Of a DNA stretch of 64,000 nt, positions 26,772 to 62,600 are shown piece after piece; positions within the stretch are counted from its first letter, which is position 1, and every line of letters starts with the position of its first letter. The notes under the pieces are model-generated. The model did not search any database and was not told the origin of the DNA. It saw only the letters and a list, made by a program, of their open reading frames with translations. The translations under genes were made by a program, and so were the position numbers. This stretch comes from a virus. The stretch covers positions 60,251 through 124,250 of the IMG/VR virus record IMGVR_UViG_3300015371_000002. One strand, 5' to 3'.

Positions 26772-27542
<771 letters not shown>

Positions 27543-47889: not shown

Positions 47890-48327
47890 TCATGCTGGTA
47901 GCACCTCTCTCGCCCCCTGGTCAGGCCGTTGCGCAGCAGACTGGAGCAGCGAGCGTCGCCCGCAGCCACGCGAACAGAATGTGCTCCCGCTTAAGCTCAC
48001 GAACAGATTGCCGCATTGCGGACAGGTCGTGGGGTTCACCACCACCACCGTCTCCCTGGGCAACTTTCCGCTCTTGCCTTTGCGCCGTGGTTTGTCGAGA
48101 GTCACATCGTAGCAATACAATGTCGCGATCATTAGGTGCCAACGCATTTCCGCCGGACTGGCGAGCGTATCGTCTTTATTTGGTAGCGCGCACCACATGC
48201 GCGTAACGGTGTGCATCGGCATCAGCCCTGCGACCCTGTCGTAAATCTCCCCCAAGGTGGTTGGCTTATCTATGTGCTCGGTGAGATACCGGCGAAGTTC
48301 GATGCGCCATGCCGGCGGTTGCGCCAT
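47890..48327 (-). CDS. hypothetical protein with C-terminal zinc finger
   Basis: CPQCG...FCSRGC. Confidence 0.55.
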   Translation of the reverse strand: MAQPPAWRIELRRYLTEHIDKPTTLGEIYDRVAGLMPMHTVTRMWCALPNKDDTLASPAEMRWHLMIATLYCYDVTLDKPRRKGKSGKLPRETVVVVNPTTCPQCGNLFVSLSGSTFCSRGCGRRSLLQSAAQRPDQGAREVLPA

Positions 48328-49316
48328 TCGTTGGCCCTCTCTTTTTCCTCGATCAGCTTGTCCACCTCAGCCATGACCTCGGCGATGACCGTGGCGGCGT
48401 CCTCCAGCATTTTGCGCTCGCCCTTCAATTCTTGCGCCGTGAACCCGCCGAGATAGAGTTTATCTGGCGATCCTGGATACGCCTTCACCATGCCACGAGG
48501 CCTGGACAGAAACGCCGTTCCCTTGGCCTTCGGTGTGCGGCTGCGCTTGCCGCGGTTCTCCGCCTCGATCTGCGCCATCTCCCGGTCACGCTCTTCAATG
48601 AGCTTCAGTGCTTGCCGCTCACTGGTCTTCTCCTTGAGCTCCTTGATCAGCGACGTTGCGGCGCTGGTGCGCAGATCAGGATAGCGAGCGATCAGTCTCA
48701 CCGCCTCGGTGAAGATGACGTCGTTGTTCAGGCCGAACAGCGGTTGTTTCAGAGCCTTGAACTTGTCGTGGGAGATCTCGGCACCCACGCCAAGACGCTG
48801 CGCGCGCTCGGCGACCTCATTCTCCCTGAGATGGTTGGCGACCGTCTGCGGCCTCAAGCCAAAGCGCACGGCCAGCTCGTTGACCGGGACATCCGGATAC
48901 AGCCGATGGATTTCGGCGATGTGGTTGAGCTTCTCCATCTGATCGGGCGCACGACCTTCGATGTTATTGATCGTGCGCAGCAATAGTTCCACGCGATACG
49001 GATCGGCGTCACGAACAACATAAGCATCTAGCGCGTCGATCTCCGCTTCCTTCGCGCCCTCGATGCGGTGACGACCGGTTATTAGCCGGCTAGGCTTATT
49101 GTCGCCGGCATCCAACACCACGATGGCGGGGAAGTCCGCTCCATCGATCATCGCCAACCCGTAACTCAATGCCCGATCCTTATCGAGCTTCTTATACAGC
49201 CGAGCAGGATTGGCGTCGGCCTCCTTCAGATCAATCGCCGCAAACTTGAGCTGCTTGACGAAGACATGGCCATAGCCGTTAGCCTTCAGGAAATTCTCGG
49301 TCTTCGGGTCCCTCAT
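48270..49316 (-). CDS. ParB/Srx N-terminal domain protein
   Basis: DFPAIVV...LITGRHRIEGA followed by an HTH-like segment; start MRDPKT. Confidence 0.7.
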   Translation of the reverse strand: MRDPKTENFLKANGYGHVFVKQLKFAAIDLKEADANPARLYKKLDKDRALSYGLAMIDGADFPAIVVLDAGDNKPSRLITGRHRIEGAKEAEIDALDAYVVRDADPYRVELLLRTINNIEGRAPDQMEKLNHIAEIHRLYPDVPVNELAVRFGLRPQTVANHLRENEVAERAQRLGVGAEISHDKFKALKQPLFGLNNDVIFTEAVRLIARYPDLRTSAATSLIKELKEKTSERQALKLIEERDREMAQIEAENRGKRSRTPKAKGTAFLSRPRGMVKAYPGSPDKLYLGGFTAQELKGERKMLEDAATVIAEVMAEVDKLIEEKERANEWRNRRHGASNFAGISPST

Positions 49317-49335
49317 ACACGTTCCTTCCCGCGGG

Positions 49336-49932
49336 TCACGCCCGCATGTGCCCCTTCTGCAGTGCCGTATCGATGTCGGCGTCAAGGAACTTGGCGAGAT
49401 GGTCCATCATGCCCACCAGCTTGCCAAGCTCGATCTTAGAGTTCGGCTTCTGCCCAGTGCGAGTCTCTTCGGTGCGACACCAGAAGTCGACGCTATGGTT
49501 CTGGAACAGGATAACCGCCGCCATGCGCTGTTGTTGCTCGCGCAGCGACGCCCAGATGCGTTTGAATTCGTCGATGGCGCGACACTGCGAATGCGACGCC
49601 TTGCTAAAATCGAGTCGGGGCCCATAGACCAGCGCGTTCACCGGCATGCCGTCACGCGGTGCGCTGAAGCCGATGCGGGCGACGTCGGCGCGGGTGCGCA
49701 GATAGTCGGCGGCGTGAACGTGCTCTTCCTTGATCTCACGGCTAACGCGCTGCAATCGGCGCAGCATGCACATCGTCCAATAGCCACGGATGACACGGGC
49801 GGTGCGCTGGTTGGGACGGATGTCGTCTGGGTCTATCCATTCACCGCTATCAATTTGGTTTTCGCCCCCGTCTTTGCTGCGGCGGCGGACGGCTTGCGGT
49901 GGGTCCTGGTATTCAGTCGCTCGCTGCGCCAT
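49336..49932 (-). CDS. putative late transcription regulator (DUF6456-like)
   Basis: Position after replication genes; EEHVHAADYLR...LVGMMDHLAKF. Confidence 0.45.
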   Translation of the reverse strand: MAQRATEYQDPPQAVRRRSKDGGENQIDSGEWIDPDDIRPNQRTARVIRGYWTMCMLRRLQRVSREIKEEHVHAADYLRTRADVARIGFSAPRDGMPVNALVYGPRLDFSKASHSQCRAIDEFKRIWASLREQQQRMAAVILFQNHSVDFWCRTEETRTGQKPNSKIELGKLVGMMDHLAKFLDADIDTALQKGHMRA

Positions 49933-50504: not shown

Positions 50505-52304
50505 TCAGTCAGTCACCCAGCTTGGTGGCGGTGGAATCGGTTCCGCGTCAGATGGGTCGCGATAGCGGTTGGACGCTGACTCGAAATCCATGATCGCCCG
50601 CCGCCCGCGCGCCGACCAGCGCTTGGACTTAGATTTCCAAACGTATAGTCCAACGGCGCCATCTTTTTCGTGGTGCACGGTGATCCCAAGGTCGCTCTTG
50701 TTTGCCCAGTGCTGGCTTCCCGAGATTGAATATCCGACCGGCACCATGTAATCGCCCCGATCCTTTGACGGCGCCGGCTTTGCCGGATGCGCTATGACCC
50801 ACACATTGCAGCCATACCGCTGCGCGAACGAGCGAAACCGTTGCAATGCTTTGCCGATGAAGTCCGTCTCCGGCGTATCGCCACGCTGTTGGTCTATCTC
50901 GTTCCACGGATCTACCATCAGATCGGTAACGCCATAACGAACGACCGTAGCAGCAGCCCGTTCGAGCACCCAGTCCATGGTGGGCGCTTCGTCCTCAGCA
51001 TCGCATACCATCATTGTCACACGCCCGTTAAGCCAATCACCCGCATGAGCGATTTCCGCATCGCTCATTGTGTCCATGCCTGGGACGCTCCAGAACGGCT
51101 TGCCCGAGTAGACCTCCGCACATTCAGCAGCAAAATATTCCCACGGTTGATGTTCTGGGGAGAACACGGCCCAAACACGATCATGGCGTCTAATCGTGTG
51201 GATCATGACGAACCGCGCCCAGCTGGTTTTGCCGTGACCCGCATATCCGGTGACGATGATTAGCCTACCGTCTCCGGGGAATTTGAGAATTTCATCGGTC
51301 GCACGGATGCCTGTCGTTAGCACAGGAGGGGGTGGTCTGTTACGCAAAGCGAGCAGCGGTTGCGGCCCGATTTCGTAAATGCCTTTGATCGGGTAGGGCA
51401 GCGCGCCGGCAATTGTCGCAACAAGCGCGTCAACCCCATCGCGGATTAATGTGTCACAGGCATCCTTGCAACCATCCGGCCACGTCGCAAGAAAGCACCG
51501 GTGCCGTCCGAGCCGCCGCGCCAATTCCTCGCGAAGCGCTAAACCGGGCGCGTCAGTGTCGCCGGCCAACACGATCCGTTTTGCCTTGACCAGCAGGTCC
51601 GCATGCGTGCGTAGGGCGGCGAAGCGTTTATCGTTTGGGTTGGCTGTATCGGAAACTGTGATGCCTGCGCCGTCCTTGAGCGTTACCGCGTTCGTCAGCC
51701 CGCACTCGTGCAGCGCCATGACATCCGGCTCACCCTCGACCCAGATGATTTCCTTCGGTTCATCACCGACAGCATCAACGTTGAACAACGTCGGCAGCGC
51801 GTTTGCTTCCTGCATCTGCGGCTGCTTGTCTGGGTCCGGACGATACTTCCGATTTACGACATCGCCCTTGAGCCGATATGGAAAGACGATGGCTGGCCGC
51901 TTACCAAGACCCTGGAAATTCCTGGTGACGGAATAACAGCCGAAATAGTCCACCGTCCGCGCGCCGATATGCCGATCGGCGAAGAAGCGATACATCCACT
52001 CAGGCTTTTCGCTGTCGTCCTGTGGCGCTGGCTTGCGTGGCGGCGCCTGCGGTTCATCCCATTTGGTATGCCGCTCGCGCTCCTCTCCGCGGACACGCTC
52101 CCCGGCCGTCCACTGACATTTCCCGCGCCAGCACTTCACGACGACGCCTAGCCCGTCGTCATCGATTTTCACCTGCAGGCTCTTTTCCCGCGTGCGCCCG
52201 CCATCGCAGCGTGGGCAGACAACCTCCTCCTGCGCTCCCGGGCGCATCGACCGCAGGTTGCGGATGCCGAAGTTGTCCAGAATTCCCGCGACGCTGTCGG
52301 CCAT
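50505..52304 (-). CDS. bifunctional primase-helicase (T7 gp4/Twinkle-like)
   Basis: Zn finger CPRC...C...C, TOPRIM WVEGEPD and LAGDTD, KDACD, Walker A TGYAGHGKT, VDPWNEI, ISGSQHW. Confidence 0.9.
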   Translation of the reverse strand: MADSVAGILDNFGIRNLRSMRPGAQEEVVCPRCDGGRTREKSLQVKIDDDGLGVVVKCWRGKCQWTAGERVRGEERERHTKWDEPQAPPRKPAPQDDSEKPEWMYRFFADRHIGARTVDYFGCYSVTRNFQGLGKRPAIVFPYRLKGDVVNRKYRPDPDKQPQMQEANALPTLFNVDAVGDEPKEIIWVEGEPDVMALHECGLTNAVTLKDGAGITVSDTANPNDKRFAALRTHADLLVKAKRIVLAGDTDAPGLALREELARRLGRHRCFLATWPDGCKDACDTLIRDGVDALVATIAGALPYPIKGIYEIGPQPLLALRNRPPPPVLTTGIRATDEILKFPGDGRLIIVTGYAGHGKTSWARFVMIHTIRRHDRVWAVFSPEHQPWEYFAAECAEVYSGKPFWSVPGMDTMSDAEIAHAGDWLNGRVTMMVCDAEDEAPTMDWVLERAAATVVRYGVTDLMVDPWNEIDQQRGDTPETDFIGKALQRFRSFAQRYGCNVWVIAHPAKPAPSKDRGDYMVPVGYSISGSQHWANKSDLGITVHHEKDGAVGLYVWKSKSKRWSARGRRAIMDFESASNRYRDPSDAEPIPPPPSWVTD

Positions 52305-53095
52305 CACGGGCACCACGACGGCACGGGCTGGCGATACGGCGACGCCGGCCGCGCGGGAGGTTTATCTTGCTCGCTGCGTTGGTCACGATAACGGACGTAA
52401 TTCAGACACCAAGTGCGCCAGGAAGCTCCCCAGTCTGCGCTGTCGGTTCCGTTGGCCTGATGGTAGGCCACGAAGCGCGCTATTTCTGCGAGCGGGACGC
52501 CCCGTTCGGTGGCGAAGGCGCTTGCCTTTCCGTCCGCGGACCAGTCCTCCGGGATCGTCGTTCTGCTGCGTGGCTTCGGAGTAGCCTTTTGGCGCTTCGG
52601 TTTCCCGCGCGCGCGATAAGACTCCAAACTATGAATATTAGATTCTGGTTCTTTCCTTGGTTCATTGGATAGATTCCCTCCCTGATTTGGGAGGGGGGGG
52701 GATCCATTTTTGGTAGCCCCCCCTTCCGTATTTGGTATCCCCACCTCTTCCGTTTTTGGTATCCCCTCCCCTTCCATATTCGGTAGGGGGACCCCTTCCG
52801 CATTTGGTAGGGGGGTATCTCCGATTTTGAGACGATACTCAGCGCTGAGGTGGGGCTTGCTGGCATCATCGCCAGGCCGCAGACACCGCTCGGTGAGACC
52901 TGAAGCGCAGAGAGCCGAGAGGGCCTTGCGGACCGTCTTTGGATTGAGATGCGTTCGGCGGCAGATTGTCTGGATAGAGGGGAAGGCGCGTTCGCCCTCT
53001 TTATTGGCATACCAAGCAAGACAGACTAACACCAGCTTGGCGGCACTCGTGGGGCATTCCTGCTCCCACGCCCAAGACTGTGCGCTGAAGCTCAT
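52304..53095 (-). CDS. HTH replication initiator (lambda O-like architecture)
   Basis: AKLVLVCLAWYAN...AFPSIQTI...KTVRKAL; internal repeats; C-terminal ADWGASWRTWC; TGATG coupling to the primase gene. Confidence 0.8.
   Translation of the reverse strand: MSFSAQSWAWEQECPTSAAKLVLVCLAWYANKEGERAFPSIQTICRRTHLNPKTVRKALSALCASGLTERCLRPGDDASKPHLSAEYRLKIGDTPLPNAEGVPLPNMEGEGIPKTEEVGIPNTEGGATKNGSPPLPNQGGNLSNEPRKEPESNIHSLESYRARGKPKRQKATPKPRSRTTIPEDWSADGKASAFATERGVPLAEIARFVAYHQANGTDSADWGASWRTWCLNYVRYRDQRSEQDKPPARPASPYRQPVPSWCP
52680..52822 (-). repeat. iteron-like direct repeats (putative replication origin)
   Basis: Five to six copies of TACC(A/G)AA-N3-GGAAG(G/A)GG at 21-24 bp spacing inside the initiator gene. 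Confidence 0.7.
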
Positions 53096-53231
53096 GGCGT
53101 GGCATCCACGCCGCGCCATTGCACGACGTTGGCAGCCTGCACCCATAGGAATGCTGCCCAGCGGGCTTCAAGCCGAGAATGATAGCGGCGACCGCGATAG
53201 ACGGTCGGGATAGCCGCTATCCAGTAGCCGC

Positions 53232-55281: not shown

Positions 55282-56247
55282 ATGGTTCAGTTCACTATTG
55301 ATCTGGCCTCAACGTCATCGGCTGCCTTCGGCAACCTCATCGAGCAGTTCGAGAAATGGAAGCAGGACTCTCCGCCTGCACCGTTTGGCCTGACGACGGG
55401 TATCCATACGATTACCCCTGAGCAGGCCGAGGAGCTGCTGAAGCGCAATCGGAAGAACCGTTCAGTTGATATGAGGACGGTTCAAAACTATGCCGTCCAA
55501 CTGATGCGGCAAGAGTGGAAGATTACTGGACAGCCCGTGATCTTTACTGAGCAGGGCAACCTCTTGGACGGGCAGCACCGTTTGTGGGCTTGCTATCTGA
55601 GCGGAGTGCCGATCACCACATATGTGGTAACCGGCATCCCCGATCAGGATAACCTGTTCGCCTACGTCGACAATTGTCGGCCACGCTCGGCCGGCGATGC
55701 TTTGCAGACTGCTGGGTTGAATGGCCTCGCCAAGCACGTGGCGGCAGTCATTCAGGAGTTCGCTCATCGCTATGATGAAGGAGCGCTCGGCGTATCTGGC
55801 CGTGTCTTCGGTATGACGTTGTCCAACCGCGAAGTGCTTGGTTACATGCAGGACCATCCTGACCTGATGGATGTCGCCCGCTATGTAGACAAGATGCACA
55901 AGCAGGCGAAGGCCAAGTTGGGCGCCTCGATCACTACGTTCCTGGCATGGAAGATCGAACAGCTCTATGGCCGGGAGACTGTCGATGAGTTCTTTCACTC
56001 ACTCATCGCAGTTGATTTGCCTAACGACCATCCGGTCACGATGCTGCGCAAGTATATCGAACCGCCGACCCTGACGCCGAAACAGCGGCAGGCAGGCATT
56101 ACCGCGAAGCAACCTCCGGCAAAGACCCGGCTGGCCATGGCCATCGCTGCCTTTAATGCGGTGCAGTCTGGTCAGCGCCTTAAGAAGCTGCAGATCGACC
56201 CGATGAATTCTTACGTCATCAATGAGCCGGTTGCGCAGGCAGCCTAA
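55282..56247 (+). CDS. ParB-like N-terminal domain protein
   Basis: ITPEQAEELLKRN..NR...W...GQPVIF...LLDGQHRLWA. Confidence 0.8.
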   Translation: MVQFTIDLASTSSAAFGNLIEQFEKWKQDSPPAPFGLTTGIHTITPEQAEELLKRNRKNRSVDMRTVQNYAVQLMRQEWKITGQPVIFTEQGNLLDGQHRLWACYLSGVPITTYVVTGIPDQDNLFAYVDNCRPRSAGDALQTAGLNGLAKHVAAVIQEFAHRYDEGALGVSGRVFGMTLSNREVLGYMQDHPDLMDVARYVDKMHKQAKAKLGASITTFLAWKIEQLYGRETVDEFFHSLIAVDLPNDHPVTMLRKYIEPPTLTPKQRQAGITAKQPPAKTRLAMAIAAFNAVQSGQRLKKLQIDPMNSYVINEPVAQAA

Positions 56248-56296
56248 CGGATGGGGGCGGCGGAGACGCCGCCCTTCATTCTCTGGAGCACGTGTC

Positions 56297-57322
56297 ATGA
56301 GATACGAACTACACCCGGCCTGCGCTGCGTTCCCGCCGATGTCTGATAAGGAACTGAGGAAGCTTGCCGAGGACATTAGATTCAATGGTCTGATGGAGCC
56401 CATCACACTGCTTGATGGCAAGGTGCTCGATGGACGCAATCGCATGCTGGCGTGCGAAATGGTGGCCATGGAGCCGGATACCCAGGACTTCAATGAGAAG
56501 TTCCGTGGCTTCGATCCGATCCGGTTCGTGCTGGCGAAGAATGAACGCCGACGGCATCTGCCGGCTAACGAACGCGCGATGATTGCTGAGACGCTGGCCG
56601 CAATAGCTAAGGGCCAGAAAAAGTCAGATAGAGTAATTACTCTATCTGAGGCTCTGACGCAGGAAGAGGCCGCAGAAGAGATGGGCGTAAGCGTGCAGGC
56701 AATCAAAGATGCACGCACAGTTAAGAAGAACGCCGCTCCGAATGTCATCGACATGGTGCGTAAGGGCGATGTCGGTATGCAGGTTGCTGCCCGTGCCGCG
56801 TCAGCCACACCATTGCAAGAACAGGCGAAGTGGAAGTCGCCGAAGGATGTGCGCGCCGCATTCGAAGCACAGCGGCCAACTAACCGGAGACCATCCACGG
56901 ATCAGAAGGCACCAAGGAGAAACACCCGACAAGAGGCATGGGAGCGGAGGATTAATCGCCCTGCATTCCGATCGCTTCCACCGGAAGAAACAGGCAAGCC
57001 GGTGGGCCTAGAGGCGTTAGAACCAGACCCGGATAACCCTACCGTCACCATTGGGTTCTCGCATATTGCCAAACACGGAATGGTGCAAATCCTACCGATC
57101 ACAGAACAGCAGCGCATGGACTTTCGCGCGAAACTCTATGATCTGACGGGCGCAATGAAGGACCTCGCCAACAAGGAGTGTGCGACCGCAGAGGAGTTTG
57201 TGACGCTTCTGACAGAAAAGGAGCGGGCGCCATTCTTACGCCAATGGTCGGACTACATCAGCAAGATCGAGCAAACGATTCAGACATTGAGCGGGCTGAT
57301 TGAACGTGAGAAAGCAGCATAA
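56297..57322 (+). CDS. ParB/Srx domain protein with HTH
   Basis: LHPACAAFPPM...LAEDIRFNGLMEPI...LDGRNR...NERRRHL; TQEEAAEEMGVS. Confidence 0.8.
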   Translation: MRYELHPACAAFPPMSDKELRKLAEDIRFNGLMEPITLLDGKVLDGRNRMLACEMVAMEPDTQDFNEKFRGFDPIRFVLAKNERRRHLPANERAMIAETLAAIAKGQKKSDRVITLSEALTQEEAAEEMGVSVQAIKDARTVKKNAAPNVIDMVRKGDVGMQVAARAASATPLQEQAKWKSPKDVRAAFEAQRPTNRRPSTDQKAPRRNTRQEAWERRINRPAFRSLPPEETGKPVGLEALEPDPDNPTVTIGFSHIAKHGMVQILPITEQQRMDFRAKLYDLTGAMKDLANKECATAEEFVTLLTEKERAPFLRQWSDYISKIEQTIQTLSGLIEREKAA

Positions 57323-57503
57323 AGGAGCCAGTGTGATGAACGAAGAGGCATCTGGATTAGCGCACGAGATCGAACATCTGATGCGATCAATTAGACTGAC
57401 AGATCCAAAGAAATTTGTCGAGCTTTGCGATTTGCTCGGGGTTGATCCGGAGGATTTTGACAAGTTCCTTAAGGAGGACGTTGCGCGCCAGGATAATTGA
57501 GCA

Positions 57504-57770
57504 ATGATTGACAAAGAGGCTGCTGAATTGGCGGTTGCTGCTCTGCTTGAAGCACGCCAAGTCGCGCTGGAAAGGGCGGCTCGGTTGCGCGCTGATGCAC
57601 CGGACCCACGCGGTCGAGTTCGCCTTACGCTGATTAGACAGGCTGTTTCGCTGGAGCGAAATGCCAGACTGCTCTCTGGCGTTATTGACACTCTTAAGGC
57701 GTGGGAAGCGCGCGACCAGACGCTCCGGCGGTTCGCTCATTACACTTTAAAGGGAGAAGGAAATGACTGA
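57504..57770 (+). CDS. hypothetical protein
   Basis: Operon packing. Confidence 0.45.
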   Translation: MIDKEAAELAVAALLEARQVALERAARLRADAPDPRGRVRLTLIRQAVSLERNARLLSGVIDTLKAWEARDQTLRRFAHYTLKGEGND

Positions 57771-58227
57771 GGACACCCTGTTCCCGATGTCGCCGCGGCG
57801 TGCGGTGAACAAGACACGCAGCGTGCGGGCCGATGACATACTCCTGACTTTGTTATTAACCGACCTGGAACGTGCCGAGCTTAAATGGAATACGCCTGGG
57901 CCTAGCAATGAAATGGGCGGCTATCAGAGATGCGAAAACGAGGCGATCACTCGGGCGGATGGGCATGCAGAAACCGTCCCTGGCAAATTCTATAAGATCG
58001 ATGTCGATAAAGACTTTTGGTGGATGTTGACTCGCTACATCCAACGTCATGAGGGGGGTGGACCCAACGAGCGACTCCGTAGGGCGTTCCGTAGGTATAT
58101 CGGCGAAGGCGTCGGCTTCTGCAAAGCATGCGACGCCGCCGCAGTGAGGCCAGACGGATTTGGCGCGCCCGTTCCCAAGAAACACTGTCTGGGATGCGGC
58201 AGACCGCTCTGGACGCTGAAGGCTTAG
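57763..58227 (+). CDS. hypothetical protein with C-terminal CxxC pairs
   Basis: GGAGAAGG RBS; CKAC...CLGCG. Confidence 0.55.
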   Translation: MTEDTLFPMSPRRAVNKTRSVRADDILLTLLLTDLERAELKWNTPGPSNEMGGYQRCENEAITRADGHAETVPGKFYKIDVDKDFWWMLTRYIQRHEGGGPNERLRRAFRRYIGEGVGFCKACDAAAVRPDGFGAPVPKKHCLGCGRPLWTLKA

Positions 58228-58860
58228 CTCATCATGACCGTCGTGAGCGCACCCACGACATGCCGCGAATGTCGCGGATGGTTCTGGTGGCGCCCACGTG
58301 ACACGAATGCCACATGGACGTGCTGGGGCTGTTCCCCGCCGGACTACGGCTGGACCTGCGCCACGGTGGAGATAAGGAACGCGCGGCGCGACGTCTCGGC
58401 ATGAGTGACAGCCCTGTCCCACCGAAGCCCCTCATGGGGCCCGCGAAGGCCCGCGATATAGCGCGTGACTTCAAGGCATGGTCCGAACATCTGCACGAAC
58501 TTGGCCTGACCGCCGAGGCCAGCCGGGCAGAACGCGACAGTCAATGGTGGCTCATTTACAGCATAGCTCTGTCGCAGATCCCGCCCGGGCGCGTCGAAAC
58601 ATAATCCCACCACCTCCGCCGTTCATTACGTGTCAGTGCGCAACGGAATTGCTCCCTCCTGGAAACAGCGTTGCACGCCGCGTCGAAAGTGTTGACGCAA
58701 TTCGTCGATATATGGATGACTATATACTGTGCTGCCACACAGCATGACGCGTCGATGCGTTACCGTCCCATATGGTCTCTCTCAGGGTCGGTGATCTGCC
58801 TCGCGCGTCCCCTGTTTAATGCTCCGGGCTCGTGGGCCGGAACTTGAGGGAGAACGTCGC

Positions 58861-59721
58861 ATGGCAACGCGTCCTATTCGCCGTAATCAGCGCAAGCCGA
58901 ACCGTCCATCGCCCGACCGCCAAGAGCCAGAAGATGAAGTGCCAGTCACGCCAGAAATCGAAGAAGAGGCTCCGCTCGCACCAGCTTCGCTGACAGCGCT
59001 GCTGTCCACCGCTCCGGTCTATACTCAATTCGACATTTGGTTGGTGGGTGACACGCCGCTGATCTGCCACGCGTGGTCGCTCAAGGCGCGGCTAGAGATG
59101 CTTGCGACCCAGACCAAGGCCGTGCGAGACACCAAAGTTGCGCGTGATCCGCAGGCCGATTTCATCAGCTCGCTATACGAGATGTCGGAAGGCAGTGGAG
59201 AATACGGCTTTCCGCTGACCGGGATTAAGAACTGCATTCTGTCGATGGCGCATAAGGATCGCGGTGTTCCGCGAACCACAGTGCGTGCGTCACTGCAATT
59301 GCGCGGGAACATCGTTCGGGTGCGGCCAGCGTTAGCAGGTGCGATATGCGATATGCCGCTTTGCCGGATCTACGGCGGGAAGCCAGAGATGCGCGAGGAT
59401 ATGGTGCGGGTAGGAGCGGGGCTTCGTAAGAAAGCGACCCTTGCCTATCGTGCCCAATTTTGGCCCTGGGCTATCCGCATCGCGGGGCGGGTCAATACGC
59501 GGATGCTGCCCAGCGAGGCGTTGGTCTTTCTCGCTAGGGAAGGCGGCAGCGCTACTGGCATCGGCGAATGGCGCAACGAGAGGGATGGCATCTTTGGTGC
59601 CTTCCACCCGGCTCGCGTAAACGAGGCAGACGCATGGGGGAAATTTGCCAGTGGCAAGGGGCCGTTGCCACACGTCGAACCCTGGGTTGGGCTGGATTCT
59701 GACGAGAGCGAGGCGGCGTAA
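58861..59721 (+). CDS. stand-alone Cas7/RAMP-like RNA-binding protein
   Basis: IWLVGDTPLICH (RAMP first strand, cf. TPLHIG), YGFPLTGIKNCI (cf. IPGSSLKG), C-terminal Gly-rich loop GGSATGIGEWRNERDGIFGAF; GAGGGAG RBS before ATG 58861. Confidence 0.7.
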   Translation: MATRPIRRNQRKPNRPSPDRQEPEDEVPVTPEIEEEAPLAPASLTALLSTAPVYTQFDIWLVGDTPLICHAWSLKARLEMLATQTKAVRDTKVARDPQADFISSLYEMSEGSGEYGFPLTGIKNCILSMAHKDRGVPRTTVRASLQLRGNIVRVRPALAGAICDMPLCRIYGGKPEMREDMVRVGAGLRKKATLAYRAQFWPWAIRIAGRVNTRMLPSEALVFLAREGGSATGIGEWRNERDGIFGAFHPARVNEADAWGKFASGKGPLPHVEPWVGLDSDESEAA

Positions 59722-60225
59722 ATGGCAGAACAGTGGACGGTTCATCAAAATAGCGCACTGCGCAATGTCAAAAATCGCACTCAGCTTGACCCATCGCGCG
59801 TCGGTCCGGAACTGCAGCGGCACCCGACCAACGAAACGGCGCTGGAGGCAGCAAAATCCAACCGCAATCCGCTCCATCGGCATTTGGAGTGGGATGACGC
59901 TGTCTGTGGCGTCGCGCATCGTCTCGGACAGATCGCCGCGCTGCGATCATGCATCCGTCTATACGATGAGGAAACCGATGAGGTTCATCGCGCCTTCATC
60001 TCGTTGACTGACGATGAAGATCGCCACCGGGCGCGATATTACAGCCGCCAGCAGGTTCTCGACTCGATCGAGATTCAACGGCAGGTGCTACGAAAATGGA
60101 TCACCCGCTTCGAAGCGATTCAATCGGATCTGTCCGAAATGGAAGACCTGTGCCAAGCGGCGAAGGACTTTGGCCAACGACTAAGGGATCGGCTGCAATC
60201 GTTTGAAGCACGCCCATCGGAATGA
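59722..60225 (+). CDS. partner protein of the RAMP-like gene
   Basis: Starts on the base after the previous stop; LEAAK...NPLHRHLEWDD...HRL motif; C-terminal coiled coil. Confidence 0.75.
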   Translation: MAEQWTVHQNSALRNVKNRTQLDPSRVGPELQRHPTNETALEAAKSNRNPLHRHLEWDDAVCGVAHRLGQIAALRSCIRLYDEETDEVHRAFISLTDDEDRHRARYYSRQQVLDSIEIQRQVLRKWITRFEAIQSDLSEMEDLCQAAKDFGQRLRDRLQSFEARPSE

Positions 60226-60251
60226 TGGCAAGAAAAACCAACAAGATTTTT

Positions 60252-61116
60252 GGCGGGGGGCGGCTCTGCTCTCCCTGGCTTGGCGGGGCGCGACCCGTCT
60301 CGGCCGGCTTGTCCGGGAATGGCGCGTCAGAGGCTGGGCACGGCTCAGCACTGCTGTGCCAGGCAGGCACGGCGCGGCTCGGCGGGTCCCTGCAAAACAT
60401 GGCCTCTCTCAGCGTGGCGGGGCAGGTCTCGGCAGGCATGGCGCGGCATGGATTGCGTGGCTTGGCCCTGCAGTGCCCGGAATTGCTCGTCTTTGCACGG
60501 CCGACATGGCTAGGCTGGGCCGAGCATGGCTGGGCTGGCCCCGGCGTGGCTCGTCTCGGTGTGCAAGGCAGGCACGGCTCGGCGGTGCGGGACCCGTCTC
60601 GGCAATGCCAGGCAGGGCCGGGCTCGTCATACCAAGGCAGGCGCGGCGCGGCCAGGCTAGGATGGCGGTGCTCAGCATTGCTCGGCATGGCCCGGCATGG
60701 CTTGGCAGGCAGGCTCGGCAAGTCTCAGCGTGCCTCGGCCTGGCATGGCGCACGGCATTGCTCAGCTGGTCTTGGCAGGCATGTCAGGTATCGGCAAGTC
60801 CGGGCAAGGCACGTCACAGCGTGGCTTGGCAGGCAGAGCGCGGCTCGGCGCAACGTAGCTTGGCCCGCCATGGCAGGTCTCTGGCATGGCGTGGCGGGTC
60901 GAGGCAGGCACGGCGGGTCCAGGCAAATTCTGGCCAGGCTGAGCTCGGCCCGGCGGTGCACGACGTGGCAAGGCCGGAAAGGTTCGGCACGGCATGGAGT
61001 GGCTTGTCTGGGCACGTCATTACTGGGCGTCGCTGGGCATGACTTGGCAGGCACGGCTAGGCCTGTCACGGCAAGACTCAGCAAGGCCAGGCATGGCGAA
61101 GCGTGTCCCGGCTCGG
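60252..61116 (+). ncRNA. array of ~69-nt units made of GGC-NN pentamers (putative guide-RNA array)
   Basis: 4-nt phase breaks GGCA/GGCC at 60302, 60362, 60431, 60499, 60567, 60636, 60704, 60774, 60828, 60903, 60972, 61046; spacings 60,69,68,68,69,68,70,54,75,69,74; a typical unit is 4 + 13x5 nt. Confidence 0.8.
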
Positions 61117-61146
61117 GGCGGTTGGCAGCAATAGTTGCCAGCCGCC
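61117..61146 (+). terminator. hairpin closing the pentamer array
   Basis: GGCGGTTGGCAGC-AATA-GTTGCCAGCCGCC, 13-bp stem with two G-U pairs on the plus strand. Confidence 0.7.
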
Positions 61147-61160
61147 TCTGCTGTCATAAT

Positions 61161-61442
61161 TCAGTCCAGGTGATACACCCGACTGGCATCGTCCGCCGCG
61201 CGGTCCTTCATTAGCTCGATGCGCAGTTTGTCGCGATCGAACGGTGGCGCGTATTGGGCGATGGCGTCGATCAGTGGGTCTGGATTGTAGCGGAACTCGT
61301 TGGGCGAACTGCCGAGTGACAGCACCGGCCCTGCATCACCGTGCCTTTCCAATTCGACGACGCAGAAGAAAGTGCGCAGTGGCGGATCCCAGCCGATGAC
61401 CATGTAGTCGCCGCCATCAGGCTCGAGGTGGCATTTGCTCAT
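61161..61442 (-). CDS. hypothetical protein
   Basis: VIGWDPPLRTFF; overlaps the end of the RuvC-like gene. Confidence 0.6.
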   Translation of the reverse strand: MSKCHLEPDGGDYMVIGWDPPLRTFFCVVELERHGDAGPVLSLGSSPNEFRYNPDPLIDAIAQYAPPFDRDKLRIELMKDRAADDASRVYHLD

Positions 61443-61978
61443 GCTAAATCCCATCGGAACAACGGCTGCTTCGCCGACGGAATGCCGAGGATCTTCTGCC
61501 GGTAATCGTGCCAACAGATGATGGCATCCGCAGCGTTATGGTCGGTTACGTCAAGTTTCAGTTCCTGGCGGCAGAACTGCACCACGGCGGTCTTCGTCTC
61601 ACCCTTAACCCAACGGCAGCGGCCCATGACGTTGGTGCGGATGGTATCAACGTGAGCGCCATGGAACGCCACGTCATGACGGAAGCATGCTTCCCTGACG
61701 AAGCCGACGATGGCGTAGATCTGCATCATGGTGTCGACATTGGTGTTCGGCACGTTGGGCGGCAACGGGTTCTCGATCACCACGTCCGCAGGGTTCCACG
61801 CATCCATCGTGTCGTTGACCTTATCGACGAAAGCAGCGTAACGCGCGCCGACGCCGCCGATCTTCGGTAAGGTCCAGTGGCCGAATTCCGGCTGTTTCCG
61901 CCTGAGCGGTGCATAGGCCCAGCCGATGACGGTAGCGGACAGATCCAGCGCCAGCACACCGCCATCGGGCATGGTCAT
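61439..61978 (-). CDS. RuvC-like Holliday junction resolvase
   Basis: VLALDLS..IGWA, VVIENP, DHNAADAI. Confidence 0.8.
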   Translation of the reverse strand: MTMPDGGVLALDLSATVIGWAYAPLRRKQPEFGHWTLPKIGGVGARYAAFVDKVNDTMDAWNPADVVIENPLPPNVPNTNVDTMMQIYAIVGFVREACFRHDVAFHGAHVDTIRTNVMGRCRWVKGETKTAVVQFCRQELKLDVTDHNAADAIICWHDYRQKILGIPSAKQPLFRWDLA

Positions 61979-61979
61979 C

Positions 61980-62600
61980 TCATGCCGCCGTCTGCGGCTG
62001 CTTACGCGGCCGTCCCCGTGGCCGCTTCAGCGGCACCACATTTTCCTTTGGCGCCGCCAGAGCCTTCATCGCCTTGGGCATCCTCCCTCTGGCCTTGGGC
62101 TGTGCCTTGTTGGCCTGCGCCACGGTGCCGCGTGCGCCGGCGATATGCTCCTGCGCTCGCACGCCGATCTGCCACCACTTCACCCAGCCCTGGCTTTCCT
62201 CGGATCCCTCCTCGTATTGGTTGGCATCCTCGCCTAGCCCGCCACGGCCAGCGAGAAAGCCTTCATCGTTGGCCTTGGCGACCCGGCCCATTTTGCGGAT
62301 CGACTCGGGGAATTCCTCAGTAGCATTGAAGACGTTCAGCTGCGGTCCCAGAACCAGCCCGTTGGCGGCCGACGCCCGAGCGAAATTGGCAATGAAGGCT
62401 TCTGCTTTGGCCGCCCCGCGTCGCCGGAGCCGGATCGATAGCTTGATCTCTTCGACCGGCACGCCGATGTCGCGCCAGCGCTTGTCGATCGCCGCTCGCA
62501 GCGCGTTCTCGACCTTACACTTGCGGTCCTGTTCCTCGTATTCGAGCTGGTAGTCTGCTGCATCCTGCATAGTCCAAATCGGACCGTTGGTTCCTGACAT
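61980..62600 (-). CDS. hypothetical protein with basic AT-hook-like tail
   Basis: EGFLAGRGG...NQYEEGSEE...W; KRPRGRPRK. Confidence 0.6.
   Translation of the reverse strand: MSGTNGPIWTMQDAADYQLEYEEQDRKCKVENALRAAIDKRWRDIGVPVEEIKLSIRLRRRGAAKAEAFIANFARASAANGLVLGPQLNVFNATEEFPESIRKMGRVAKANDEGFLAGRGGLGEDANQYEEGSEESQGWVKWWQIGVRAQEHIAGARGTVAQANKAQPKARGRMPKAMKALAAPKENVVPLKRPRGRPRKQPQTAA

Follow-up and report, generated by a model that had tools for sequence, protein, structure and literature searches.

The 64,000-nt stretch of viral DNA analysed here, referred to as the window, covers positions 60,251 to 124,250 of IMG/VR record IMGVR_UViG_3300015371_000002 and in all likelihood carries a nearly complete VIPR (Viral Interference Programmable Repeat) system of the staggered-array kind, borne by a 124-kb phage. 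The observations that carry this reading are the homology and fold of the encoded Vipr protein, the conservation of its contact residues, the grammar of the adjoining repeat array, the recurrence of vipr, partner gene and array together in many phages and the carriage of the locus by a phage. The locus, singled out in an original prediction as a candidate non-CRISPR RNA-guided system, is a further example of a system already described and not a new kind.

VIPR systems have been reported as a lone ancestral RAMP, Vipr, accompanied by a vap gene and found mostly in phages and prophages (10.64898/2026.04.26.720920, PMC13142463). Their vrRNAs are described as consisting of 9-16 YNNGG repeats, the NN dinucleotides of which recognise DNA with one skipped base, and the systems, divided into seven types that all use the same repeat code, as silencing competing mobile elements (10.64898/2026.04.26.720920). 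Type II VIPR was the subject of a study of phage-satellite conflict (10.64898/2026.10.15.759431), and period-5 entropy alone was reported to recover 99 VIPR-like intergenic clusters (10.64898/2026.10.21.760802). The class is very recent, with preprints dating from April to October 2026 that present a non-contiguous RNA code for DNA and propose an ancestral relation to CRISPR. The picture of how VIPR works is unchanged by the locus described here, which shows at good resolution the layout that has been characterised least, the staggered one, in a 124-kb rhizosphere phage.

The vipr open reading frame (ORF; 58861-59721, plus strand, 286 aa) is preceded by GAGGGAG 8-9 nt 5' of its ATG, as read directly in the sequence, and its TAA stop is followed without a gap by the start codon, ATG, of gene B, a second ORF (59722-60225, plus strand, 167 aa) regarded as a vap-like accessory gene from its linkage to vipr homologues. 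A patterned tract begins about 25 nt 3' of the gene B stop and reaches to about 61115; it was annotated as a vrRNA array of the staggered type (60250-61115, plus strand) with 161 NN-GGY pentamers in about 13 units, in which short repeats shift the register by one base. The array is closed by a hairpin (61115-61148, plus strand) with a perfect 15-bp stem and a 4-nt loop, without a U-run. The arrangement originally claimed, of two abutting plus-strand genes with an array less than 30 nt further on and a closing hairpin, was confirmed by this reading.

Homology and fold of the Vipr protein

The product of vipr (gene A) is, judged by its sequence homology and its modelled fold, a Vipr-type RAMP. 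No Pfam family was found for it or for the gene B product, and in PHROG it was assigned to family 4652 (E 8.4e-14), the function of which is unknown. Of 2764 candidates from a large protein database, 1017 were retained as relatives at E <= 0.001, and every named one of these is called 'hypothetical'; one relative in the protein database is 93% identical, and those found in a metagenome scan reached at most 68% identity. When a profile of 33 homologues was compared with the sequences of PDB chains, the sole match at E <= 1 was 36pp_D, 'SUSP1 Vipr protein' (E 1.2e-7); the single sequence of the vipr product matched PDB entry 36pp with an E value of 0.019. Together with the Cas7/Csm3-type fold and the GGY-fixed, NN-variable array, the profile match bears out the resemblance to VIPR that had at first been proposed.

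In the cryo-electron microscopy structure of SUSP1 Vipr, the G1, G2 and Y3 bases are contacted by H17, R138, D177, W178 and R179 (10.64898/2026.04.26.720927). These residues align with H70, R197, E236, W237 and R238 of the window protein, its candidate GG-contact residues; in the alignment of 33 sequences, each of the five is either invariant or conserved to at least 90%, and the glycines G229, G233 and G235 of the G-loop (G229-N239) are invariant in the same alignment. One protomer per pentamer, with GGY gripped and NN exposed, was reported for SUSP1 (10.64898/2026.04.26.720927), so that the one-subunit footprint suggested earlier for the 5-nt period agrees with a described structure, the contact residues of which are conserved in the window protein.

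In the AlphaFold2 (AF2) model of the vipr product (pLDDT 76.6), the first 45 or so residues (1-45) are charged and disordered, and the core comprises approximately residues 50-256. Four matches at E <= 0.001 were returned by Foldseek, and the top rows were all Cas7-type RAMPs, in the order type VII Cas7 (E 5e-4), Csm3, Cmr6 and Cas7-11, with probabilities of 0.99-1.0. The best match in VIA-align was Csm3 (9g9i_D), which aligned over 149 residues within model residues 51-254 at Z 7.9 and a root-mean-square deviation of 4.3, and the 50 matches listed were without exception CRISPR RAMP backbone chains. An RRM/RAMP fold had been named as the first thing to look for in 58861-59721, and the top matches of both tools, all Cas7/Csm3-type RAMPs, agree with it. 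The protein shares an RRM core, a glycine-rich loop and a thumb with the class 1 Cas7 family (Csm3, Cmr4/6, type VII Cas7 and Cas7-11), its best structural neighbours, which align at Z 6.7-7.9 across some 150 residues with a sequence identity of 5-14%. Unlike class 1 CRISPR-Cas, the locus is accompanied by no Cas1/Cas2 and no repeat-spacer array, and it carries a 5-nt coded repeat in place of a contiguous spacer.

Apart from Vipr itself, the nearest solved folds are those of the RNA-targeting Csm3, type VII Cas7 and Cas7-11, which would fit a protein-RNA filament that in this clade acts on RNA and not on double-stranded DNA (dsDNA), in the manner of the related Cas7 backbones of types III and VII. 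A codon-composition test of 398 unique guides, which gave z 4.3 for codon positions 1-2 and z 6.0 for positions 2-3, was not specific and also leaves room for such an action. We nevertheless regard it as very unlikely, given the sequence homology to SUSP1 Vipr, a protein reported to bind dsDNA and to form triplex R-loops (10.64898/2026.04.26.720920, 10.64898/2026.04.26.720927), the presence of the same GG-contact residues, and the single repeat code described for all seven VIPR types (10.64898/2026.04.26.720920).

Grammar of the repeat array

Between 60226 and 61160, lags of 5 and 10 gave base identities of 0.466 and 0.461, respectively, as against 0.21-0.23 for lags of 2-3. For 60250-61115, a lag-5 identity of 0.483 was obtained, compared with a mean of 0.292 (standard deviation 0.015, maximum 0.344; z 12.5) in 500 dinucleotide-preserving shuffles. 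A register-tracking parse yielded 161 pentamers, 92 of them exact NNGGY (89 NNGGC) and 61 one base off, and the same parse applied to 100 shuffles gave a mean of 42.7 exact pentamers and a maximum of 56. The entropies of the five pentamer positions were 1.98, 1.95, 1.06, 1.01 and 0.46 bits, with all 16 dinucleotides represented at NN. The pentamer pattern exceeds chance, with GGY fixed and NN variable; elsewhere in the 124-kb record, the periodicity threshold was reached by none of 4914 scanned windows, and no other periodic patch was found within 57000-62000.

Because the GGC-rich tract is poor in stops, long spurious ORFs (330, 279, 206, 119 and 114 aa) lie across the array on both strands (60203-61214), and gene callers will report a hypothetical protein over it. 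The longest of these (60222-61214, 330 aa), which spans the tract, could be taken to mark a low-complexity protein gene, and the equivalent tract of Gordonia phage UmaThurman is annotated as a coding sequence (CDS), gp40; alternatively, the three ParB-like genes upstream in the window might suggest a repeat that works at the level of DNA, for example as a site for partition or for the binding of a protein, in place of an RNA guide array. Almost no credence is given to either version. The period, 5, is not divisible by 3, the arrays show frequent one-base register shifts, and long ORFs are open in several frames and on both strands; furthermore, pentamer positions 1-2 are near-random and positions 3-5 fixed, and the tract travels with vipr and not with the ParB-like genes, which recur with vipr in 0 of 190 loci.

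Taken as an RNA guide array, the tract is divided by its register slips. Eleven of the 19 slips in the window are of four bases, the others being of 1, 2 and 3 bases (3, 1 and 4 cases, respectively), and most four-base slips read xxGG, followed by CAGGC. The resulting heptamer GGCAGGC occurs at 60362, 60431, 60567, 60636, 60704/60708, 60774, 60828, 60903 and 61046, and the spacings between clear GGCAGGC junctions are 69, 136, 69, 68, 4, 66, 54, 75 and 143 nt. The fixed unit of about 69 nt that had been postulated therefore does not hold, as the length between clear junctions varies from 54 to 75 nt and 69 is one mode of a spectrum. In total, one-base-short repeats cut the window array into about 13 units of 9-15 pentamers.

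The window array was then pooled with those of 29 loci with Vipr at least 50% identical, giving 30 arrays, among which the identical copies L003-L005 were left in. In the pooled set, 316 of 498 slips are of four bases, as against 74, 57 and 51 of 1, 2 and 3 nt, and 247 of these 316 precede CTGGC, CAGGC or CCGGC. The commonest four-base slips are AAGG (96) and GAGG (43), and the junction consensus of the clade is RAGG-CWGGC (the hyphen marking the end of the short repeat). The spacings of four-base slips follow 5k+4, with modes at 54, 59, 64, 69, 74, 79 and 84 nt, corresponding to 10-16 pentamers; they match the 9-16 repeats per vrRNA reported in 10.64898/2026.04.26.720920 and therefore support the VIPR reading. 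The junction consensus and the unit-length spectrum of these 30 arrays are possibly useful beyond this locus, as is the mobility of the cassette as a unit described below.

Partner gene and linkage across genomes

Gene B is a conserved, true partner of vipr, since 113 of 190 loci have a homologue of it, in the same orientation, immediately downstream of the vipr homologue; in a further 5 it is placed elsewhere, in 57 it was undetected and in 15 there was no room for it. The gene diverges fast, with 21-38% identity where Vipr retains 50-66%. Its product belongs to PHROG 15946 (E 2.4e-11; function unknown) and carries the conserved motif LHxHFEWDD..AA, and its AF2 model (pLDDT 94.1) shows a small N-terminal alpha/beta domain followed by a long C-terminal helical hairpin. 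A Pfam search with 44 members of the gene B family found no family, only single stray matches, and no significant match was found among PDB sequences. In Foldseek against the PDB nothing reached E <= 0.001, the rows obtained being MarR/SlyA-like ones with E values of 0.9-5, a wide VIA-align search matched only the helical hairpin (Z ~8), and the search of BFVD returned only uncharacterised phage proteins.

Linkage of the array was assessed in 134 loci (80 from IMG/VR and 54 from species genomes). A strong 5-nt tract starts less than 1.5 kb downstream of the vipr homologue in 98 of these, so that the 5-nt periodicity expected downstream of homologues was indeed recovered; in 4 loci it lies only upstream, 7 had no room and 25 had none at the threshold. 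Across these 25 below-threshold loci, a junction-like motif occurs at 3.5/kb downstream as against 1.6/kb upstream. Four of them (L001, L002, L006 and L009; from IMG/VR, with Vipr 62% identical) show the junction motif AGGCAGGC or AAGCAGG at unit-like distances 3' of the gene B homologue, but fall below the periodicity threshold because the GGY scaffold between the junctions has faded to approximately NNGKN. These four tracts may represent a variant repeat consensus or decaying arrays.

No homologue of any of the 11 genes flanking the window cassette was found in the 190 loci, and it is therefore the cassette that travels as a unit. The clade of homologues spans phages of Alphaproteobacteria to phages of Gordonia and Mycobacterium, and includes 32 cultured-phage records (27 Mycobacterium and 5 Gordonia) in which the Vipr homologue is annotated as hypothetical. 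In UmaThurman the order is vipr (gp39, 36% identity), array and gene B homologue (gp41), adjoining the genes for the immunity repressor, excise and integrase; the interval annotated as CDS gp40, 'hypothetical protein' (NC_031249.1, 33362-33685; L195, 3083-3406), is an NNGGY array with GGCAGGC junctions. It may likewise be of use that all three parts occur in actinophages which are cultured and tractable, and in which a protein gene has wrongly been annotated over the array.

Comparison with described VIPR layouts and proposed mechanism

The locus resembles staggered-array VIPR in its lone Vipr RAMP with one accessory gene, its phage-borne setting and its GGY/NN pentamers. The main description of VIPR names 'staggered arrays with overlapping vrRNAs', and the legend of its fig. 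S18 speaks of '1 nt overlapping positions' (10.64898/2026.04.26.720920); by comparison with that legend, the guides of the window abut in the same manner, the end of one being the start of the next with a 1-nt offset. The type II VIPR of Escherichia phage SUSP1 and of the Pseudomonas fulva prophage shares with the window a homologous Vipr, the H, R and W-R contacts, the GGY/NN code with 9-16 repeats per guide and the order vipr-vap-array. It differs in that the SUSP1 vrRNAs, as described, are about 100 nt long with an invariant structured 3' tail and a pseudoknot, together with one upstream vrRNA, and in that SUSP1 Vipr has 202 aa, as against 286 aa for the window protein with its N- and C-terminal extensions.

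On the preferred reading, which follows the published SUSP1 and P. fulva systems by analogy, vipr, the vap-like gene and the array would be transcribed rightwards as one unit from a promoter within 58590-58860, and the transcript would end at the hairpin. Vipr protomers would polymerise on the RNA, one per pentamer, with H70, R197, E236, W237 and R238 gripping each GGY and leaving the two variable bases free; one unit would present 9-15 such dinucleotides, which would read dsDNA with one skipped base between them, and the unit may in this way block transcription of a gene of a rival phage or mobile element. The guides would follow in succession without a structured tail or ribozyme, with the one-base-short repeat marking the boundary, and we infer that this short repeat breaks the register of the protein and so delimits the guides. 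A further extension of this scheme seems rather doubtful to us. According to it, guide boundaries throughout this large clade would be written solely as the one-base-short repeat (YNGG within RAGG-CWGGC), the register break itself would stop one Vipr filament and seed the next, and the partner, with its LHxHFEWDD motif, would recognise or cut the junction as a guide-maturation factor and would not be a DNA binder; the three parts would form a self-contained module exchanged between unrelated phages, the order of which can be permuted (vipr-vap-array here, vipr-array-vap in UmaThurman).

Weighing of the VIPR reading and target searches

Several points have to be set against the assignment of the locus to VIPR. 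With regard to the protein, the position of SUSP1 D177 is occupied by glutamate (E236), and the best Z of 7.9 lies, according to the tool's own note, in a range where common arrangements can score; as a Z just below 8 is weak alone, the fold call leans on the uniform list of matches and on the sequence match. With regard to the layout, small-RNA sequencing is reported to have confirmed the ribozyme-interspersed and single-vrRNA layouts, the text being silent on the staggered one (10.64898/2026.04.26.720920). The window units do not have the invariant 3' tail of type II, as only a 4-nt short repeat stands between them and the sole hairpin lies at the end of the array, and no RNA run was present among the runs listed as containing the locus. 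The window array is also more worn than those of its relatives, with 92 of 161 pentamers exact GGY and 8 extra slips of 1-3 nt, and some of its units may be inactive. Finally, the target searches count on the same side. In these, the published 1-nt skip between NN dinucleotides was used as the target rule. When 13 in-phase tracts were compared, with mismatches tolerated, with their own record (array masked) and with the loci of 80 relatives (0.6 Mb), the best skip-1 scores were equal to those of shuffled guides and to those of skips 0, 2 and 3, and six exact 9-pentamer scans of a viral collection, each with 18 specified bases, gave chance-level counts with no match that extends.

Another reading is that the locus is VIPR by descent but has a decaying array, in which many units no longer keep the GGY scaffold or are interrupted by register breaks, the cassette being a relic or only a few units yielding working guides. 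Such a reading would draw on the 57% of pentamers (92/161) that are exact GGY, on the 8 slips within units, on the much cleaner appearance of the arrays of the relatives L011 and L003 and on the failure to find a target for any unit. It is, in our view, unlikely, as neither ORF is disrupted, the contact residues are conserved, 61 more pentamers are just one base off, and a failure to find targets in incomplete collections says little.

The search was extended to 450 guides from all arrays, which were compared with 0.93 Mb on both strands; no skip-1 enrichment was observed, with 11, 11, 3 and 14 guides reaching a match of at least 85% for skips 0 to 3, respectively, and the top skip-3 matches probably stem from duplicate loci. 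The six exact scans differed in their yield. Tracts 61048, 60905 and 60564 matched 0 loci each. For tract 60506 there was 1 locus, in which the skipped base falls on codon position 2 and extension of the match gave 1/4. Tract 60979 matched 3 loci through one shared sequence of 38% GC, with an extension of 3/8, and tract 60662 matched 3 loci, two of which are complete proviruses.

The perfect matches of tract 60662-60706 in these two proviruses are antisense and in the wobble register, within homologous genes for a D12 N6-adenine methyltransferase (peptide NIGIDIDPI), and the two sites show 6 differences at the skipped bases, a placement that resembles the published logic. The remaining window guides gave no match to the two proviruses above shuffles. 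With up to one mismatch, the 60662 pattern was found in 13 of 401 genomes of the order Hyphomicrobiales, 2 of them with perfect matches; the backwards control gave 0, although this control was not codon-neutral. Eight sites were examined and lie in unrelated genes. The seven that were scanned with Pfam fall in genes for a MOSC protein, two GMC oxidoreductases, two phosphopantetheinyl transferases (the perfect matches), a Mu Gp27 protein and a redoxin, and the eighth is in an open span of 50 aa. The D12 methyltransferase was rejected as a demonstrated target of 60662-60706, since the 18 informative bases fit a common peptide-like pattern that recurs in unrelated housekeeping genes and the other guides miss the proviruses. 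Guides of 9 pentamers, with 18 informative bases, would have off-target sites in bacterial chromosomes.

Units of the array

All units lie on the plus strand. The array opens with two worn leading units (10, then 5+6 pentamers; 60250-60363), with slips at 60300 (tcgg) and 60329 (a), and these are followed, after the junction CAGG-CAGGC, by a unit of 13 pentamers (60364-60428). The unit at 60433-60501, after the junction TCGG-CAGGC, comprises 3 pentamers, a slip (atgg) and 10 pentamers, and that at 60506-60560, after the atypical junction cgac-ATGGC, has 11 pentamers, 8 of them exact GGY; Tandem Repeats Finder reported a 20-nt internal duplication at 60499-60538. A unit of 13 pentamers at 60564-60628 contains the junction AAGG-CAGGC, and the same junction belongs to the unit at 60633-60706, in which 5 pentamers and a slip (tagg) precede the clean 9-pentamer tract 60662-60706. 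Two units, of 8+5 and then 2+7 pentamers, occupy 60710-60825, with the junctions TTGGC-AGG-CAGGC and TTGGC-AGG-CATGT. They are succeeded by a unit of 10+4 pentamers (60830-60900) after TTGG-CAGGC, a unit of 14 pentamers (60905-60974) after GAGG-CAGGC and a unit of 13 pentamers (60979-61043) after the atypical junction cgga-AAGGT. The last unit, of 13-15 pentamers (61048-61115), follows the junction TTGG-CAGGC and runs into the hairpin.

Hairpin and upstream region

The minimum free energy (MFE) of the hairpin region (61090-61170) was calculated as -41.9 kcal/mol (z -3.9), a stability that was equalled in 1 of 200 shuffles. The hairpin faces the 3' end of a convergent gene on the minus strand (61161-61514) and probably terminates transcription of the cassette; a simple terminator scan passed over the hairpin, because it has no T-run. 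The arrays of L003, L008 and L011 also end in similar hairpins. Across 89 arrays, the ends of which were located crudely, the mean MFE of the array end was -30.1 as against -28.9 in controls, with 20% of arrays below the 5th percentile of the controls. An Rfam scan of 58000-62000 returned no ribozyme or other structured family.

The non-coding region upstream of vipr (58590-58755, plus strand) contains three copies of CGCGTCGA, at 58590, 58679 and 58748, and the hexamer TTGACG at 58693. Three of the six copies of CGCGTCGA in the window thus fall within this 166-nt stretch, all on the plus strand and 89 and 69 nt apart. No promoter was found upstream of vipr by a consensus promoter scan; the cluster, or the region 58590-58755 as a whole, is a possible operator and promoter of the cassette.

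Phage context and neighbouring genes

The virus record comprises 124,250 bases and was estimated by CheckV to be 92% complete. The window encodes a terminase, a portal protein, a major head protein, a tail-fibre-like protein, a primase/helicase, a replication initiator, a RuvC-like resolvase, a Gam-like protein and a single-strand annealing protein, and the VIPR cassette sits amid replication and recombination genes. No match to the Pfam families of Cas1 and Cas2 was found in the whole record, in a search in which the positive controls worked, and no repeat-spacer array was detected in the window by Tandem Repeats Finder. The statement that the window has no cas genes and no CRISPR array accordingly stands for cas1, cas2 and the repeat-spacer array; a PHROG scan of 60 window ORFs showed no other cas-like gene, cas3, cas5 and cas6 not having been searched by family.

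The DNA runs containing the stretch are labelled as rhizosphere or soil metagenomes, and contigs from four DNA runs, identical in sequence to the window, are broken into pieces that leave gaps in the array; as DNA they do not bear on transcription. The nearest cellular homologue is that of Tianweitania sp. (60%), with other Rhizobiales at 40-44%. When an 8-kb structural block was compared with 401 genomes of the order of Tianweitania sp., it gave, in 50 of them, only terminase-like matches of 63-68% over long stretches, with short pieces reaching up to 93%.

Three ParB-like genes with a ParB/Srx nuclease domain lie at 48270-49385 (minus strand), 55282-56247 (plus strand) and 56222-57322 (plus strand), the latter two directly upstream of the cassette. 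A 24/48-nt tandem repeat in 2-3 copies (52703-52814), within the region of the replication-initiator-like gene (52304-53146, minus strand), has the appearance of origin iterons, and a perfect hexamer repeat, GCCGTT in 8.3 copies, is present at 27465-27514.

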